Shown: piece after piece, positions 334 through 9,576 of the stretch
Position numbering within the stretch: position 1 is the first letter of the stretch
Layout of the letters: every line of letters starts with the position of its first letter
Origin: a bacterium
GTDB taxonomy: Bacteria > UBA8248 > JACPRG01 > G963555815
Assembly (NCBI GenBank): GCA_965261595.1
Contig: CBDHDG010000001.1
Coordinates: 32,001 to 96,000, forward strand
Length of the DNA: 64,000 nt
Direction of reading: 5' to 3'
The notes under the pieces: generated by a model
What the model saw: only the letters and a program-made list of their open reading frames with translations
Databases searched by the model: none
Told to the model about the DNA's origin: nothing
Program-made: the position numbers and the translations under genes

Positions 334-1469
334 GGGGCGAAGACCCCATCGGTGGCTTCATGTCCTTCGGGGGGGGGGCTGTTCTTGGCAAAATTCACAG
401 CTTCTTCAATCGATTCGAGGTTACGGGCTTCCGTCTCCTGAAAGAAGGAATCATCCCCATGCCCCGCCGCGCGCAACCTCTTTTCGAATAACGGGATCGG
501 GTCCCCGGACTCCCACCCGGCGATCTCCGCCTCGGTCAAATAGTCCGTGTAGGCGTCGTAGATGGAATGGCCCCCGATTCTCACGTTCATGGACTCGATG
601 AGGATCGGCCCCTCGCCGGCCCGGGCCCGCTCCAGCGCCTCGCGGCAGACCTCGTAACAGGCGGCCACGTCCGTCCCGTCAATCAGGTAGCCCGGAATCC
701 CATAGGCGATGGCCCGCAGCGCCAGTGTCTTGCAGGCGTATTGCATGCGCGTGGGCGTTTTGTACGCCCAAAGGTTGTTCTCGATGATGACGACCAGGGG
801 CAGGCGGTGGACGGCGGCCAGGTTCAGCCCCTGGTGGAAGTCGCCCGTGGAGGTCGCTCCGTCGCCGCACATGACCAGAGCCGCCGATCCGTCGCTTCGG
901 TACTTGGCCGTCCAGGCGGCGCCGCACGCGATGGGGATCATCGTCCCGATGTGGCTGATGAGCTGGATGATGTTGTGCTTGCGGTTGCCGTAGTGAAGGT
1001 CCCGACCCCGGTTGATTCCATTGACCCGCCCCAGGTAGTGGGCCATGAGCTCGTTCAGGTCCTGCCCCCGGACCAGGTGAGCGGGCAGGTTGCGGTGCAT
1101 TGGGACCATGATGTCTTCCGCGTCCAGGGCGGAGGCGGCCCCGACGGAGAGGCCCTCGTTGCCCCGTCCGAAAAACGCCGACCCCGGCACCAGCCCCTGA
1201 CGATACAACTCGGCGATCCGCTCCTCGAAAGCCCTCCCCAGGGCCATGAACGCATAGAGCCGCCTCAAACCCGCCACGTCCAGTCCCAGCGCGTCGAGGT
1301 CCGCCTTGGGACGCCACGCGATCCGCAGGCCGTTGATGACCATGTGGCGGTCCCGCAAGTCCCGAAAGGAGTCGAGCCGGTCGAGCTCCTCCTCCAGGAC
1401 CGGCGTTTCCGGCAACCGGGGCTTCTTACCGATGGATAACTCGATTGTCTCTCGGTTGGCTTGGGGCAC
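330..1469 (-). CDS. TPP-dependent 2-oxoacid dehydrogenase E1 alpha subunit
   Basis: GDGATSTG...IENN TPP-binding motif, RIGGHS phosphorylation-loop motif; coupled to the beta subunit. Confidence 0.92.
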   Translation of the reverse strand: MPQANRETIELSIGKKPRLPETPVLEEELDRLDSFRDLRDRHMVINGLRIAWRPKADLDALGLDVAGLRRLYAFMALGRAFEERIAELYRQGLVPGSAFFGRGNEGLSVGAASALDAEDIMVPMHRNLPAHLVRGQDLNELMAHYLGRVNGINRGRDLHYGNRKHNIIQLISHIGTMIPIACGAAWTAKYRSDGSAALVMCGDGATSTGDFHQGLNLAAVHRLPLVVIIENNLWAYKTPTRMQYACKTLALRAIAYGIPGYLIDGTDVAACYEVCREALERARAGEGPILIESMNVRIGGHSIYDAYTDYLTEAEIAGWESGDPIPLFEKRLRAAGHGDDSFFQETEARNLESIEEAVNFAKNSPPPEGHEATDGVFAP

Positions 1470-4509: not shown

Positions 4510-4714
4510 ACGAACCGGCCATCCCCCAATGCGTGAGAGGAGGATTCGACAAGCCGTACGGTGTTAGTCTACCACAAACGGTCCGTGGACTCAGTGATCC
4601 CCGGTTTTCGGTGGTGTCCTAATTCGAAATATTTCGGGAACGCTATTCTCCCCCGCTCTAGGGTTTTGTTGGACACTCGATTGATCCATGATTCATGGAG
4701 AAAGGGGTGTCGCG

Positions 4715-5101
4715 ATGAACGAACAAAAGCAAGAGGGGGCTTTGGCGGAGGGCGCCCGCAGGGCGAACGGAGCCAAGGCCCCAGGGCATCGCAGTGAGCG
4801 GGGTCGGTTCTCCTGCCAGCGCAAGCGGGAGGCGGTCCTGCGTCTTTTGCGGGGCGAGAGCCTGGAGACGCTCTGCCGCGAGTTGGGCACGACAGCGGCT
4901 CGGCTTTCCGCCTGGCGCGAGGCGTTCCTTCGCGGGGGCGAGGCGGCGCTCAAAGCCCGCCCGGCGGATGAGCGGGACGAGGAGAACGCCCGGCTCAAGG
5001 CCAAGGTGGGCGAACTCACGATGGAGGGCGAGGTCCTGCGGGAGAAGATCGACCGCCTGGAGGCCGGCCGCCCTTTAGCCGGCAGGAGGTGGAGGCGATG
5101 A
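4715..5101 (+). CDS. IS3-family transposase OrfA (HTH)
   Basis: RFSCQRKREAVLRLLRGESLETLCRELG HTH followed by zipper-like ENARLKAKVGELTME; purine-rich RBS before ATG 4715. Confidence 0.9.
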   Translation: MNEQKQEGALAEGARRANGAKAPGHRSERGRFSCQRKREAVLRLLRGESLETLCRELGTTAARLSAWREAFLRGGEAALKARPADERDEENARLKAKVGELTMEGEVLREKIDRLEAGRPLAGRRWRR

Positions 5102-6006
5102 GTCAGGCCCGCTTCACCTCCACGGGCAGAGCCTACGGCCTGAAGCGGGTGTGCGCCCTTTGGGGCTTGGCGCGCTCCACGGTCTACGCGCAACGGCGGC
5201 GAGAGGCGGTCCCCGTTCATGAACGCCCCACGCCCAATAAGCGCGGCCCTGTGGGCCCGTGCACCGATGCGGAACTCCTCGGCCACATCCGGCAGGTCCT
5301 GGAGGACTCTCCCTTCCATGGCGAGGGCTACCGCAAGGTGTGGGCGAGGCTGCGCTTCGCGGGCATCCGCACCAGCAAGGAGCGGATGCGTCGCCTGATG
5401 CGGGAGGCGGGGCTTCAGGCCCCCCACCGGGTGGGCAAACCCCGAGGTCCCAAGGCCCACAACGGGACCATCCGCACCGAGCGGCCCGACCGAATGTGGG
5501 GCACGGACATGACGACGACGGTGACCACCGAGGAGGGGATGGCCTCGGTGTTCGTGGCGGTGGATCACTGCTCGGTGGACTGCGTGGGGATCCATGCGGC
5601 CAAGAGCGGCAACCGCTTCGAGGCCCTGGAGCCGATCCGGCAGGGGGTCGCCGAGCGCTTCGCCGGCTTGGAGGCGGACGTCGCCGAGGGGCTTAAAGTT
5701 CGTCACGACCACGGCCCCGCCTATCTGTCCGATGACTTTCAGCGGGAGATCGCCTACCTGGGCATGACCAGTTCGCCCAGCTTCGTGCGGGCGCCCGAGG
5801 GAAATGGCTACTGTGAGTGGTTTATCCGCATCTTGAAGGAGAATCTCCTGTGGGTGCGCTCTTTCGCCACCGTAGAGGAACTGCGGTGGGCGCTGCTTGA
5901 GTTCAAGAACCTGTATAACCATCATTGGATTCTCGAGGGCTACGGCTACCGAACGCCGGCCCAGGCAAGGCAGGAAAAACTCGCTCAAGTTGCGGAGGCC
6001 GCATGA
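5098..6006 (+). CDS. IS3-family transposase OrfB (DDE/rve)
   Basis: GYRKVWARL, WGTD, HDHG, PEGNGYCE motifs; ATGA overlap with orfA. Confidence 0.92.
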   Translation: MSQARFTSTGRAYGLKRVCALWGLARSTVYAQRRREAVPVHERPTPNKRGPVGPCTDAELLGHIRQVLEDSPFHGEGYRKVWARLRFAGIRTSKERMRRLMREAGLQAPHRVGKPRGPKAHNGTIRTERPDRMWGTDMTTTVTTEEGMASVFVAVDHCSVDCVGIHAAKSGNRFEALEPIRQGVAERFAGLEADVAEGLKVRHDHGPAYLSDDFQREIAYLGMTSSPSFVRAPEGNGYCEWFIRILKENLLWVRSFATVEELRWALLEFKNLYNHHWILEGYGYRTPAQARQEKLAQVAEAA

Positions 6007-6686
6007 GGTCGAATACCCTCACCCGAGTGTCCAATAACCCAGGGGCGGTCCAATTCCCCGAAGCAATCAGGGAACCAGTCGCGCTTGAGGGGGAGGTACT
6101 TATAGACGACTTTGGCTAGCTCTGCACCGGGTTCTATGGAGGCGGCGAATATTTTCTTTCCCGCGTTCATCGCGGCTTTCACCACCGGAGTGTAGTCACC
6201 ATCGGCGGCCAAGAGGTATGCAACGTCGTATTCGTTCCGAACAGCCATCATGACCATATCAACGGCCAACATGACATCCACAGCCTTCTCCACCATGACG
6301 CTGACCTTCTCATGCCGTGTGGCACTGGCGACTAGATATTTGTAGACGTCCGGGTCAATCCTCACGGTGAGACTGGCGAGATATCGCTTTATCTCTTGAG
6401 AAAAACTATTTACGATGGATCGCTCTTCGAGGCGCCCATAATGGATGCTGATCCGCTTGTCGCGGGCGGCCAGCCATGCCATATATCGACGTTGGTTGGC
6501 ATAGAGTTCCGTATTGCCTATTTGCTTCACTTGACCAACGTAGTAGCGGGTTCCGATCCAGTCACGAGCCCCGACGATCTTCGCTGAAACCTTTGCGTAG
6601 TTCAACTGGCCCAAGCCCATTACGCCAGCCCGCTTGAGGCTGTGATACCAATTGTTGCCGTCCACGAAAACGAGAGCACGTTCCAT
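5985..6686 (-). CDS. NYN domain (LabA/DUF88, PIN-like fold) putative RNase; native stop destroyed by the IS
   Basis: MERALVFVDGNNWY..., RYY, EKAVDVMLAVDM, AYLLAADGDYTP, GKKI motifs; lower GC than flanks; the ORF reads into the IS end (LDRPWVIGHSGEGIRPHAASAT). Confidence 0.9.
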   Translation of the reverse strand: MERALVFVDGNNWYHSLKRAGVMGLGQLNYAKVSAKIVGARDWIGTRYYVGQVKQIGNTELYANQRRYMAWLAARDKRISIHYGRLEERSIVNSFSQEIKRYLASLTVRIDPDVYKYLVASATRHEKVSVMVEKAVDVMLAVDMVMMAVRNEYDVAYLLAADGDYTPVVKAAMNAGKKIFAASIEPGAELAKVVYKYLPLKRDWFPDCFGELDRPWVIGHSGEGIRPHAASAT

Positions 6687-6696
6687 AGATGACGCC

Positions 6697-6808
6697 CAAA
6701 ACGAAAACCCCGGGGTGTAGCCCTTGCGGACTAGACCCCGGGGGGGTAAGAGCCGAGTCCCGTAAGACTCCGGCACCAAGTCACTTTCGTCATCTCTTTA
6801 TCCTGAAT
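6697..6808 (-). ncRNA. Candidate structured leader/small RNA upstream of the NYN gene
   Basis: Hairpin 6752-6774 (UACG loop); long hairpin 6708-6743 (GCAA loop) followed by UUUUCGUUUU; long-range pairing of 6788-6795 with 6687-6694; lies downstream of a sigma70 promoter. Confidence 0.6.
6698..6743 (-). terminator. Intrinsic terminator/attenuator just before the NYN start codon
   Basis: CCCCGGGGTCTAGTCC-GCAA-GGGCTACACCCCGGGG followed by TTTTCGTTTT. Confidence 0.65.
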
Positions 6809-6814
6809 ATGTAA

Positions 6815-6842
6815 AAAATATAGACGCTTAATTCTTTGTCAA
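6815..6842 (-). promoter_or_regulatory. sigma70-type promoter for the leader RNA/NYN gene
   Basis: TTGACA-N16-TATTTT in an AT-rich patch. Confidence 0.65.
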
Positions 6843-6922
6843 GCTCGAATTTTCCTTTTTCATCGGCCGTGCGGCACCGGCAATTGTTGAGAACAGGTGC
6901 CGTCAAGCGTCCACCCGGAGCC

Positions 6923-7097
6923 GTCATTCCCGCGCAGGCGGGAATCCAGCGTTCTGGGTTGCGAGTCCATCCTCCTGCCCACTTATCATTGAGTTGGGAA
7001 GAATACGACAGAGAGAGAGGTCTTCGGCGCAGCCGGGGGTCGGATTGATTGGGACCGCTCTGAAGCACTTCTGGATTCCCGCCTCCGTGGGAATGAC
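6923..7097. repeat. Inverted pair of ATTCCC-N8-GGGAAT palindromic repeats
   Basis: GTCATTCCCGCGCAGGCGGGAATCCAG (6923-6949) and CTGGATTCCCGCCTCCGTGGGAATGAC (7071-7097). Confidence 0.8.
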
Positions 7098-7851
7098 AAT
7101 CGGGGGGAGGATGCGGAATGGCGGCGAGCTCTCAAGGTTCAGGGGATCGCTCGTCAGGGCGGAAATCACGGATGATCCTCGGGGGCTTCGTTTCTTCAAG
7201 TTCCGAAAACCGGGCATAACCGGGGAATCCAGGCCATCGGCGATGACGCCCGCTTCTGTAGGTCAATCGCCCCGTTTCCCGGATCTCAAAAATAAAAACA
7301 TATTGATTTCATTGCGATTCCGCCTTTGGGTTTGGATCGTACTTTTATATTCTTCAGCCGCTCCATCCCCGCGGAGAAAACTTCGCCGCACCGTTCTCTG
7401 TCCCAATCCGATGAATTTTCGGTTCCAAGCAAGTGCAGTCCATAAAACGAAATTAATACGAAACAAAAGGCCCGACAACTATTTTTTCGATCTGCGTGGA
7501 GGGACGGAAGTTTCGTTTATCGTTTTCCGATGAGATCGGCAGATTGGAGGGCGAAACGCGTTCGGACCCACACGACCGCAGGAGCAGGTTGCTCGAATGG
7601 AAGGTCAGGCGAGGCGGGCAGGATGCCCGCCCTACCGGGGGACGGGGGAGTCATAAGGCGGCGCCGGCGAACCAGCCGCCAGTGGCGCACTTTCTTGAAA
7701 CGTCTGCCGACTCCATGAATCGATCCCCGCACGAGCCCTCCCCTCTTCCCACGCCCCCCCCACCGGCTTGTGTTTTCTCTTTCCACTCACTAATGTGAGG
7801 ATGTATCCGGAGGTTTTTTCTCTTTCCAAGCCGCGAACGGGAGCCCGTCGT

Positions 7852-9576
7852 ATTCAAAAGCTCACCGGACAGCTCACAGGCCTGAGACCCCGGCAGATCC
7901 GCGGGCTCGAAGGCCTGTGCCGACGCAAGATCCCCTCCGACCAACTGATCACCTGGGAGACCGCCCGCCTCCTGGCAGAAATCTCCGCCGAGACGGGCCG
8001 GCAGATCGGGCTCCTGATTGAAAGAACCGGACAGATACGCTACGTCATCGTCGGCGACGCCCAGAGCATTTTCATCCCGGACCTCCGCCGGGAGCGCGCG
8101 CGGGGACAAAGGCTGCGCGGGCTGAGGTGCGTCCACACGCACCTGGCGGGCGAGGGGTTGAGCCGTGACGACCTGACCGATTTGGCCCTGCTGCGCCTGG
8201 ACTTGATGGCCGCCGTCACCCTGGACAAAGAGAATGATCCCGTCCTTCCCGGCGAGGTCCATCTCGCCCACCTGCTTCCCGAAAACCCGGAAGACAAGCG
8301 CTGGGAGGTCCTGGATCCCGTCCCGCTGAACGGCCTGAGCCTGGATTGCGGCGCGCTCATCGATGGCCTGGAGGAGGAGTTGACCCGCGTCCAGGGGGCG
8401 CGGGCGAAGATCGACGGGCGGGAGCGGGTCATCCTCGTACACGTCGAGACCGCGAGACAGGCCTCGAAGAACGGCGCCGGCCCGTCTTCCGCTCAACGGG
8501 ACGCCGGCGTTTCCCTGGCGGAGCTGAAAGAGCTGGCCCGAAGCAGCGGCCTCGTCGTTCTCGACACGGTCCGCCAGCGCAGGCCCCGGGCGGACCACCG
8601 GACCGTCCTGGGACGGGGCAAGCTCCAGGACCTGGTCATCCGGAGCCTGCAAGCCGGGGCGGACGTCATCGTCTTCGACCGGGATCTGACGCCGGGCCAG
8701 CTTCGTTCCCTCAGCAACTTCACCGACCTCAAGGTCATCGACCGCAGCCAGCTCATCCTGGACATCTTCGCCCAGCGGGCCAAGAGCCGGGACGGGAAGC
8801 TTCAGGTGGAGCTGGCCCAGCTCCGGTACATGCTGCCGCGCCTGGCGACGCGGGACGGGGCGATGTCCCGGCTGGCGGGCGGCATCGGAACGCGCGGCCC
8901 GGGAGAGATGAAGCTGGAGATCGACCGCCGCCGCGTCCGGGAGCGCATCTCCCGGCTGGAGAAGGAGCTGCGCCATCTCGAGCGGGGGCGCGGCCAGCGG
9001 CGGGCGCTCCGGAAACGGAACGCCCTGCCCATCCTGTCCATCGTCGGCTACACCAACGTGGGCAAATCCACGCTCCTCAACGCCCTGACGAACAGCGGCG
9101 TGAACGCTCAAAACCTGCTCTTCGCGACCCTCGACCCGACCAGCCGGCGGCTGCGGTTCCCGCAGGAGATGGAAGTCATCCTGACGGACACGGTGGGGTT
9201 CATCCACGACCTGCCCAAGGATCTGGTGGCGGCCTTTCGGGCGACCCTCGCGCAGCTCGAGGACGCGGACCTGCTGATTCACGTTGTGGACGTTTCGAAT
9301 CCCGGGTTTGAAGAACAGATGGACGCCGTCCACCGCATCCTGTCCGATCTCAAGCTCGACGGAATTCCGCGGCTTCTGGTCTTCAACAAAGCCGACCTTG
9401 CGGACGCGGTCGCGGTCGAGGCCCTTTGCCGGCGCTTCGACGCCGTTGCCGTCTCCGCCCTCCGGCCGGACACCCTGCCGCCCCTCATCGACCGGGCGCA
9501 ACGAATGCTTTGGAAGACGTTTAAAAAGGCCGAAGCCGGGCCGAAACCCGGCTTCGCCGCCCACGCCTCAAGCTGA
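7852..9576 (+). CDS. hflX: GTPase HflX, long form with N-terminal extension; start uncertain (ATT 7852 or ATG 7801)
   Basis: DRSQLILDIFAQRA, LQVELAQLRY, GGIGTRGPGE, GYTNVGKST, LFATLDPT, DTVGFI, NKAD motifs. Confidence 0.95.
   Translation: MQKLTGQLTGLRPRQIRGLEGLCRRKIPSDQLITWETARLLAEISAETGRQIGLLIERTGQIRYVIVGDAQSIFIPDLRRERARGQRLRGLRCVHTHLAGEGLSRDDLTDLALLRLDLMAAVTLDKENDPVLPGEVHLAHLLPENPEDKRWEVLDPVPLNGLSLDCGALIDGLEEELTRVQGARAKIDGRERVILVHVETARQASKNGAGPSSAQRDAGVSLAELKELARSSGLVVLDTVRQRRPRADHRTVLGRGKLQDLVIRSLQAGADVIVFDRDLTPGQLRSLSNFTDLKVIDRSQLILDIFAQRAKSRDGKLQVELAQLRYMLPRLATRDGAMSRLAGGIGTRGPGEMKLEIDRRRVRERISRLEKELRHLERGRGQRRALRKRNALPILSIVGYTNVGKSTLLNALTNSGVNAQNLLFATLDPTSRRLRFPQEMEVILTDTVGFIHDLPKDLVAAFRATLAQLEDADLLIHVVDVSNPGFEEQMDAVHRILSDLKLDGIPRLLVFNKADLADAVAVEALCRRFDAVAVSALRPDTLPPLIDRAQRMLWKTFKKAEAGPKPGFAAHASS

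Follow-up and report, generated by a model that had tools for sequence, protein, structure and literature searches.

A conserved two-hairpin RNA upstream of NYN ribonuclease genes, a candidate restraint of the nuclease

A short RNA with two hairpins is encoded directly upstream of the gene for a NYN-family ribonuclease, and its structure is conserved by covariation in relatives of that gene far beyond the genome described here. The DNA under study (the window) is a stretch of 64,000 nucleotides (nt) from a bacterium of the lineage UBA8248 (assembly GCA_965261595.1, contig CBDHDG010000001.1, positions 32,001 to 96,000). On its minus strand, a promoter is followed by a leader with hairpin 1 (P1), a single-stranded linker, hairpin 2 (P2), and a U tract, and then by a lone NYN gene (Table 1). 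The RNA is also found at many loci from which the gene has been lost. We tentatively propose that it may be the cognate restraint of the nuclease.

Results

Conserved RNA motif

We collected relatives of the NYN protein at 41 loci in species-representative genomes and at 80 loci in metagenomes. All bacterial relatives with readable upstream DNA, inspected by eye, share one layout: a promoter with TTGAC comes first, then a variable hairpin capped by a stable tetraloop, then a linker of the UUUAYCC type and CCCCGGGGUCUGG...CCACACGCCGGGG; a U tract and a ribosome-binding site lie between this part and the start codon. A covariance model (R1) was built from a MAFFT alignment of 60 distinct leaders, which is blind to structure. 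Set against the two-helix structure, 87.7% of the cells of this alignment are paired, compared to at most 52.5% with slid partners; 138 cells have changed on both sides, compared to 48.9 in shuffles, and none of 500 shuffles reached the observed value on any of five measures. The 101 rows aligned by the model gave 93.0% paired cells (at most 49.1% with slid partners) and 286 changes on both sides (105.9 in shuffles); this alignment was fitted to the model, so that the MAFFT alignment gives the more cautious estimate. Among these 101 examples, seven of the eight pairs of the main helix of P1 have changed on both sides and still pair. In P2, the base pairs and the apical part covary, and the inner nucleotides are more than 90% conserved.

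Model R1 lies directly upstream of the NYN gene in 67 of the 74 loci of the bacterial family, with a score of 64.4 bits in the window, and matches none of the 22 archaeal-type loci. The seven misses comprise four loci without upstream DNA on the contig (L021, L063, L084, and L093), one that is cut inside P2 (L096), one with a divergent version of the motif that was seen by eye (L019), and one whose NYN gene is internally deleted and that has no motif (L082). In relatives, the model scores 47 to 87 bits in the sense and 21 to 25 bits in the antisense orientation, and U.G closing pairs are common (42 of the 101 aligned examples); hence, the RNA is read from the strand of the NYN gene. Folding energy alone cannot assign the strand, since the two strands are similar in this respect: the minimum-energy fold of the leader holds both hairpins at -55.3 kcal/mol (z = -4.0, with 0 of 200 shuffles as stable), and the opposite strand is comparably stable (z = -4.4). 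The initial annotation, made from this one stretch, had claimed a real RNA working on the minus strand and had proposed a covariance model of homologous leaders as the check. The conserved, covarying upstream structure and the difference between sense and antisense scores bear this claim out and tie the RNA to the NYN family well outside this genome.

Several parts of the RNA are conserved by sequence, invariant or nearly so: the U and the A of the linker (alignment positions T44 and A46) and the C run (C50 to C52), which are invariant columns of the 60-sequence alignment, and the inner GUCUGG/CCACAC of P2 with its C.C mismatch. A U-rich tract follows P2 in all 60 aligned leaders. P1 and the P2 tip differ freely in sequence from locus to locus. 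This pattern, in which certain nucleotides are conserved by sequence and do not covary, suggests a sequence-specific reader, which would most simply be the NYN protein. The RNA is predicted to measure about 75 to 80 nt in relatives and about 110 nt in the window, where it has an extra 5' segment, and the motif is known from more than 100 distinct examples. One relative (L081, about 2387 to 2483) has a version without P1, whose promoter stands directly after a tRNA-like 3' end, GGTTCGAATCC...CCA; this suggests an insertion beside a tRNA gene.

A catalogued RNA is ruled out. The Rfam search that the initial annotation had suggested gave no match overlapping the leader in Rfam 15 at expectation values (E) up to 10 (window 5500 to 8000), and nine related loci (six bacterial leaders, one RNA without the gene, and two archaeal loci) gave only a tRNA at E up to 0.1. 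Rfam 15 presumably includes the abiF motif, and also ToxI and the known riboswitches. Furthermore, ARAGORN found neither a tRNA nor a transfer-messenger RNA. When the alignment was cut before the 3' strand of P2, RNAalifold found no conserved alternative (antiterminator) helix (energies of -0.7 and 0.0), and its prediction holds no conserved helix beyond the tip of P1. The lack of a conserved antiterminator helix argues against a switch of the riboswitch type and is still compatible with protein-mediated control. Tandem or direct repeats were not found in 6650 to 6850.

RNA motif without the gene

Species-representative genomes were searched with a pattern for the core of P2, which gave 84 stretches; 80 loci were analyzed, and NYN was sought there by tblastn. 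All 80 loci have full-length sense matches to the model, P1 included. In 48 of them, NYN aligns over most of its length and begins 14 to 75 nt downstream, apart from one locus (L175) in which the distance is 191 nt because a second RNA copy lies in between. In this locus, two tandem copies of the motif (1052 to 1145 and 1193 to 1281, minus strand) precede one NYN gene, the sole such case among the 80. Another 13 loci carry broken or truncated NYN remnants, which are of varied length, and 19 have no trace of NYN within about 1.2 kb; in one of the latter (L180), the gene has been split off by an ISL3 element. Thus, 32 of the 80 motif loci have lost NYN or keep it in broken form, and the RNA scores there as usual. 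Syntenic pairs document clean deletions of NYN that spared the RNA (L126/L132, L186/L161, and both L131 and L143 compared to L201), and insertion elements have struck the NYN gene in the window and in L180.

Fifteen genomes bearing such orphan RNAs, mostly metagenome-assembled and possibly incomplete, were searched for NYN genes of the family: no such gene was found in 12, one carries a distant NYN only, another an intact copy at a different place, and the last one fragments. Behind the orphan RNAs lie convergent genes or a varied cargo, namely SocA/Panacea, Gp49, MmeI-like, SIR2-like, and DarT proteins, a ribbon-helix-helix protein, and transposases. In L153, a DarT ADP-ribosyltransferase gene (429 to 1091, minus strand; Pfam E 1.8e-50) comes directly after an orphan RNA and a 19-residue NYN remnant, and this locus is an example of toxin or defense cargo replacing NYN behind a retained RNA. 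A protein-first search of viral contigs found no NYN relative, and the DNA pattern found two copies of the RNA in IMG/VR viral contigs: in L211 (1493 to 1588), the RNA is followed by only the first 12 NYN residues and lies beside a BppU-like tail gene, and in L212 (1493 to 1582), it stands alone, without NYN.

Layout of the locus

The features of the window are collected in Table 1. The promoter, hairpin 1, hairpin 2 with the U tract, and the NYN start codon all lie on the minus strand at the positions given in the initial annotation.

Table 1. Coordinates of the RNA-NYN module and of the adjoining insertion, as positions of the window
Feature	Position	Strand	Remarks
-35 hexamer TTGACA	6837..6842	minus	consensus scan
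-10 hexamer TATTTT	6815..6820	minus	16 nt after -35; alternative reading TATATT 6822-6817
5' extension, ~30 nt, predicted start to hairpin 1	6775..6808	minus	from the fold; this genome only
P1 hairpin GCCG-G-AGUCU-UACG-GGACU-CGGC	6752..6774	minus	9 base pairs, one bulged G, UACG tetraloop closed by U.G
Linker UCUUACCC, single-stranded	6744..6751	minus	conserved C run after linker
P2 hairpin, GC-rich	6708..6743	minus	C.C mismatch, GCAA loop, inner GUCU../..ACAC; near-perfect inverted repeat
U tract UUUUCGUUUU	6698..6707	minus	directly 3' of P2
Spacer, weak Shine-Dalgarno-like GGGCG	6687..6697	minus	too short for a separate promoter
NYN ribonuclease gene, native 211 codons (M...PDCFGE), ATG 6686	6054..6686	minus	Pfam NYN
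C-terminal extension LDRPWVIGHSGEGIRPHAASAT, 22 codons and new stop	5985..6053	minus	native TAG destroyed by insertion
IS3-family element, 1408 base pairs	4645..6052	plus	orfA 4688-5101, orfB 5089-6006; Pfam HTH_Tnp_1, HTH_21, rve

The scan for sigma-70-type promoters found one such site, with 1.2 expected by chance in the region. The promoter of the window is credible because it is kept in relatives and not because of the single-site scan: TTGAC stands in the matching -35 position in 43 of 48 NYN-linked motif loci, compared to 0 of 75 control windows. Relatives have -10 boxes of the TAnnnT type about 7 to 12 nt before hairpin 1, and the RNA would begin at P1 in relatives and at about 6808 in the window. 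The 5' extension of the window is not present in the upstream regions of the relatives compared; in the predicted fold, its segment AGAGAUGACG (about 6797 to 6788) pairs with CGUCAUCU just before the start codon. P2 and the U tract have the form of an intrinsic terminator stem, at which transcription is predicted to end. A simple terminator scan missed hairpin 2, which is present in the minimum-energy fold, probably because of the internal mismatch and the long stem. In relatives, 14 to 75 nt separate P2 from the start codon and contain ribosome-binding sites of the AGGAG or GGGGG type. A leader peptide of 20 codons (ATG 6793 to TAG 6731, through P1 into P2) was rejected, since its open reading frame (ORF) needs the extension that is unique to this genome. 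The sole RNA run found is available as contigs with 1/20 of the words sampled; its pieces fall in the insertion element and in 6822 to 6950, with none spanning the leader or the NYN gene, and it is uninformative on transcription of the module.

NYN protein

The ORF that starts at 6686 matches the Pfam NYN profile (PF01936; E 1.9e-14, 54.8 bits with a cutoff of 24.2). This is the only Pfam domain in the ORF, and no domain of the ToxN, CptN, or TenpN type was found. The acidic residues D9, E133, D137, D162, and D164 are the same in all 32 relatives aligned. An AlphaFold2 model of the protein has a mean predicted local distance difference test (pLDDT) score of 91.9, and its best matches among solved folds are VPA0982 (2qip, E 7.6e-8) and MARF1 (5yaa and 6fdl). 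Profile, PIN-like fold, and acidic metal-binding residues all place the protein in the NYN (LabA-like) family, and its predicted nuclease active site is intact. The NYN core also matches the HEC-09 profile of PADLOC-DB (E 5.9e-16), over residues 126 to 182 and profile positions 96 to 154 of 203 only. In bacterial members, about 35 residues (about 95 to 130; window about 6297 to 6404) form an additional insert, with two helices in the model, that archaeal relatives do not have. Archaeal leaders seem to be without P1, and we speculate on this ground that the insert is coupled to P1.

Archaeal relatives

The family extends to DPANN archaea (L022-L040 and L097-L123), whose proteins are 25 to 30% identical. 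Their leader has a TATA box, about 25 nt, a hairpin of the form CCCCGGUAUGAC-loop-GGAAUGCCGGG, and a U-rich tract, and then the start codon. Of 45 loci, 43 have this hairpin; 38 were matched with a strict pattern, and 5 are variants recognized by eye. The hairpin occurs in the compensatory forms CCCUGG/CCAGG, CCCAGG/CCUGG, and CCCCAG/CUGGG. Thus, the order of promoter, hairpin, U tract, and NYN extends to archaea, which favors a regulatory reading for that branch. In most of 12 loci examined for their neighborhood, NYN lies between genes for an FAD-linked oxidase or an HD protein and a 4Fe-4S protein gene that overlaps the 3' end of NYN.

Insertion element and genomic setting

The IS3-family element sits exactly in the NYN stop codon, with GAAT at both junctions. 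In the contigs of two other sequencing runs (X5 and X6), 4644 is joined to 6053 and 1408 nt are skipped; this IS-free junction restores TAG immediately after E211. Relatives are about 211 residues long. Together with the restored TAG, this places the native end of the protein at ...PDCFGE, as the initial annotation had read it. Summed contig depth is about 100-fold higher for the element than for its flanks; hence, the element is highly repeated in those samples.

The module is accessory. Its G+C content is 0.52 to 0.56 across 5800 to 7400, compared to 0.65 to 0.70 in the flanks, it is present as a single copy in its genome, which rules out a repeated mobile element, and none of 40 relatives from its genus, family, and class was found to carry the NYN gene. 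We propose that it arrived by horizontal transfer. The annotated picture of a lone, lower-GC NYN gene with its acidic motif intact thus holds. By record titles, the motif is spread over Acidobacteriota, Gemmatimonadota, Myxococcota, Planctomycetota, and Binatia, and furthermore over Rokubacteria, Fermentibacteria, Krumholzibacteria, Verrucomicrobia, and some Proteobacteria. Searches of the PLSDB plasmids with the RNA by blastn and with the protein by tblastn gave no match. The neighbors in the window are hflX, ubiX, and pepA-type genes and the insertion element. No protein neighbor or partner is conserved in 24 loci, in agreement with the annotated lack of an adjacent protein antitoxin.

Upstream of the module, 6850 to 7650 is a stretch of about 800 nt with lower G+C content, in which neither a convincing ORF nor an Rfam match (E up to 1) was found; a divergent hflX-like gene lies beyond it (7768 to 9576, plus strand). 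This stretch contains inverted copies of a 27-nt palindromic unit of the GTCATTCCCGCGCAGGCGGGAATCCAG type at 6923 to 6949 and 7071 to 7097. The summed contig depth of the bin 6894 to 6950 exceeds 46,000 in three runs, and the unit is therefore a very abundant repeat resembling repetitive extragenic palindromic sequences.

Discussion

The reading that we prefer, tentatively and at somewhat less than an even chance, is that the RNA is the cognate restraint of the nuclease, antitoxin-like in trans and an attenuator in cis. In our model, the strong sigma-70 promoter drives a short structured RNA made of P1, the linker, and P2. Most transcripts would end at P2 and the U tract and be released as a free small RNA, in excess over the mRNA, and NYN would be translated only from the minority that is read through. 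The NYN protein would recognize the invariant U and A of the linker together with the C run; in P2, it would recognize GUCUGG/CCACAC, including the C.C mismatch. In cis, the RNA would then attenuate synthesis of the nuclease; in trans, the abundant RNA may serve as a decoy or inhibitor, like a type III RNA antitoxin or RCd22 of AbiF. This proposal draws on the coupling of RNA and gene, the covariation, the strand, a layout that would yield RNA in excess, and the absence of both a switch helix and a protein partner. It further draws on the behavior of NYN as a costly gene, the invariant active site, the precedent of AbiF, and the presence of the RNA in phage-like contigs. Moreover, NYN almost never occurs without the RNA and the RNA often occurs without NYN, as an antitoxin-like RNA predicts.

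Several points weigh against this proposal. The asymmetry between gene and RNA is not decisive, and selection may not act on the orphan RNAs. P1 pairing is 0.81 to 0.82 in orphans and 0.86 in linked copies, which may reflect recent loss of the gene only, since the search pattern preselects an intact P2. TTGAC is kept at the -35 place in 20 of 32 orphans, compared to 43 of 48 linked copies and 0 of 75 controls, and in the sole orphan pair compared (L161/L171), the RNA region is 96% and the flank 95% similar. The RNA is a single unit and not a repeat array, and both the toxicity and the binding of RNA by the protein are predictions of the model. In DPANN archaea, the conserved metabolic setting makes NYN look stably inherited rather than part of a selfish module. 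The neighbors are not clearly defense genes either: PADLOC models match 4 of 55 immediate neighbors in relatives, all of them generic (kinase, helicase, subtilase, and PrimPol), and the gene neighborhood thus gives no support to the anti-phage role suggested in the initial annotation. HEC-09, a related, Hachiman-embedded NYN candidate, gave no phage protection in the one published test (bioRxiv 10.1101/2024.01.29.577857).

It is also possible, if rather less than probable, that the leader acts purely in cis on a ribonuclease that is not toxic, either by constitutive attenuation or as an operator that the nuclease binds or cuts, with the free RNA as a by-product. Such a leader would explain the greater part of these data. 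Family members carry the motif in their 5' untranslated region, the RNA is a single unit without repeats, and in archaea, a hairpin and a U tract stand at the 5' end of the gene inside the conserved neighborhood of FAD-oxidase, HD, NYN, and Fe-S genes. The more frequent loss of the promoter in orphans points in the same direction. However, a near-consensus promoter followed immediately by a strong terminator would be an odd route to low expression, and a regulated switch would need an antiterminator, none of which is conserved. In addition, the RNA persists with its promoter and P1 at many loci after clean loss of the gene, and the patchy spread and frequent inactivation suit a costly gene better than a housekeeping RNase. 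The many orphans that stand alone, as promoter, RNA, terminator, and a convergent gene, could instead reflect an independent small-RNA gene, or the RNA could switch the nuclease on or direct it to targets, as a cofactor or guide, instead of restraining it (an RNA-gated or RNA-guided NYN). The freedom of the P1 sequence to vary between loci would fit a guide, but the variable nucleotides are paired to one another and hence not free for a target, the conserved parts are identical across loci and thus unsuited to a guide, and nothing points to an activating signal; we consider these possibilities unlikely.

That the element works at the level of DNA, as a recombination site, a small mobile palindrome, or the end of a cassette, or that P2 is the terminator of an upstream gene, appears very improbable to us. 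Hairpin 2 is a near-perfect inverted repeat, the module is mobile, and "empty" copies without NYN exist, all of which a DNA element would explain. Yet the element is a single copy in its genome, its orientation to NYN and the promoter is constant, the G.U pairs and the model scores are strand specific, and the varied lengths of the NYN remnants indicate ordinary deletions and not precise excision. A terminator of an upstream gene is at odds with the window, in which there is no minus-strand gene upstream, 6850 to 7650 is without a convincing ORF, and hflX is divergent.

If the RNA is taken as the restraint of the nuclease, the model can be carried further, to a picture that is conceivable and that we would not call probable. 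The module would then represent a new class of RNA antitoxins, with a NYN toxin and a single, nonrepeated two-hairpin RNA whose terminator sets the ratio of RNA to toxin. It would have spread through more than 10 bacterial phyla by horizontal transfer, with a related hairpin version in DPANN archaea, and the RNA-only copies may provide immunity against incoming NYN modules or serve in phage counter-defense. A restraint of the nuclease by the RNA would also be the first function for a widespread "LabA/DUF88" family, whose known members come almost exclusively from uncultured bacteria of soil and sediment. Under any mechanism, the motif is a well-supported structured RNA outside Rfam 15, with heavy covariation in P1, an internal loop in P2 that is unusually conserved in sequence, and an archaeal counterpart. 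The motif is short, its boundaries are clear, and the gene of its predicted protein partner lies beside it; binding, cleavage, and toxicity are therefore readily testable.

Comparison with known systems

The NYN domains of the LabA/VPA0982 type and of MARF1 share the fold and the acidic active site with the protein described here; the bacterial members of this family differ in having the insert of about 35 residues and a dedicated RNA. In E. coli, the leaders of rne, rnc, and pnp mediate feedback of the RNases through their own 5' untranslated regions. They are similar to the motif in that a conserved hairpin lies in the 5' untranslated region of an RNase gene and could be bound or cut. In contrast, these leaders are not known to form intrinsic terminators after near-consensus promoters or to survive as separate units once the gene is lost, and the genes concerned are core genes. 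HEC-09 is a related stand-alone NYN gene that is located in defense loci; it has another N-terminal domain, and an RNA partner is not mentioned in the available part of its description.

The initial annotation had likened the module to type III toxin-antitoxin systems. In these, a promoter, an RNA, a Rho-independent terminator, and an endoribonuclease gene follow each other, and the terminator is thought to set the excess of RNA over toxin (PMC5086642). Part of the likeness stands: the order of a single promoter, RNA, terminator, and RNase and the lack of a protein antitoxin are common to our module and to ToxIN, CptIN, and TenpIN, with termination predicted in our case, and this order is conserved in relatives. 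The other part does not. The type III antitoxin is a tandem array of 34- to 45-nt repeats processed by the toxin, whereas here there is one two-hairpin unit, and the toxins are ToxN, CptN, and TenpN, whereas here the protein has a NYN (PIN-like) fold. Lacking both a repeat array and a toxin of these kinds, the module is not a member of type III. Consistent with the initial annotation, which knew of no described type III system with a NYN toxin, a full-text search of the literature, which did not cover most subscription journals and supplements, found neither an RNA partner nor a type III system for a NYN protein. If the RNA does restrain the nuclease, the logic of type III systems would extend to the NYN/PIN-like superfamily and to a nonrepeat RNA.

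The nearest functional analogue is AbiF with its RNA. In Clostridioides difficile, the noncoding RNA RCd22, encoded upstream of abiF, counters the toxin both in cis, where it represses the gene, and in trans, where it binds the protein directly and neutralizes it (PMC12373285). The two systems differ in that AbiF is an HEPN-like protein of the Abi_2/AbiD/F type with a different RNA, and the leader has no match in Rfam 15; they are alike in having a structured, nonrepeat noncoding RNA just upstream of the gene for an RNA-targeting protein.

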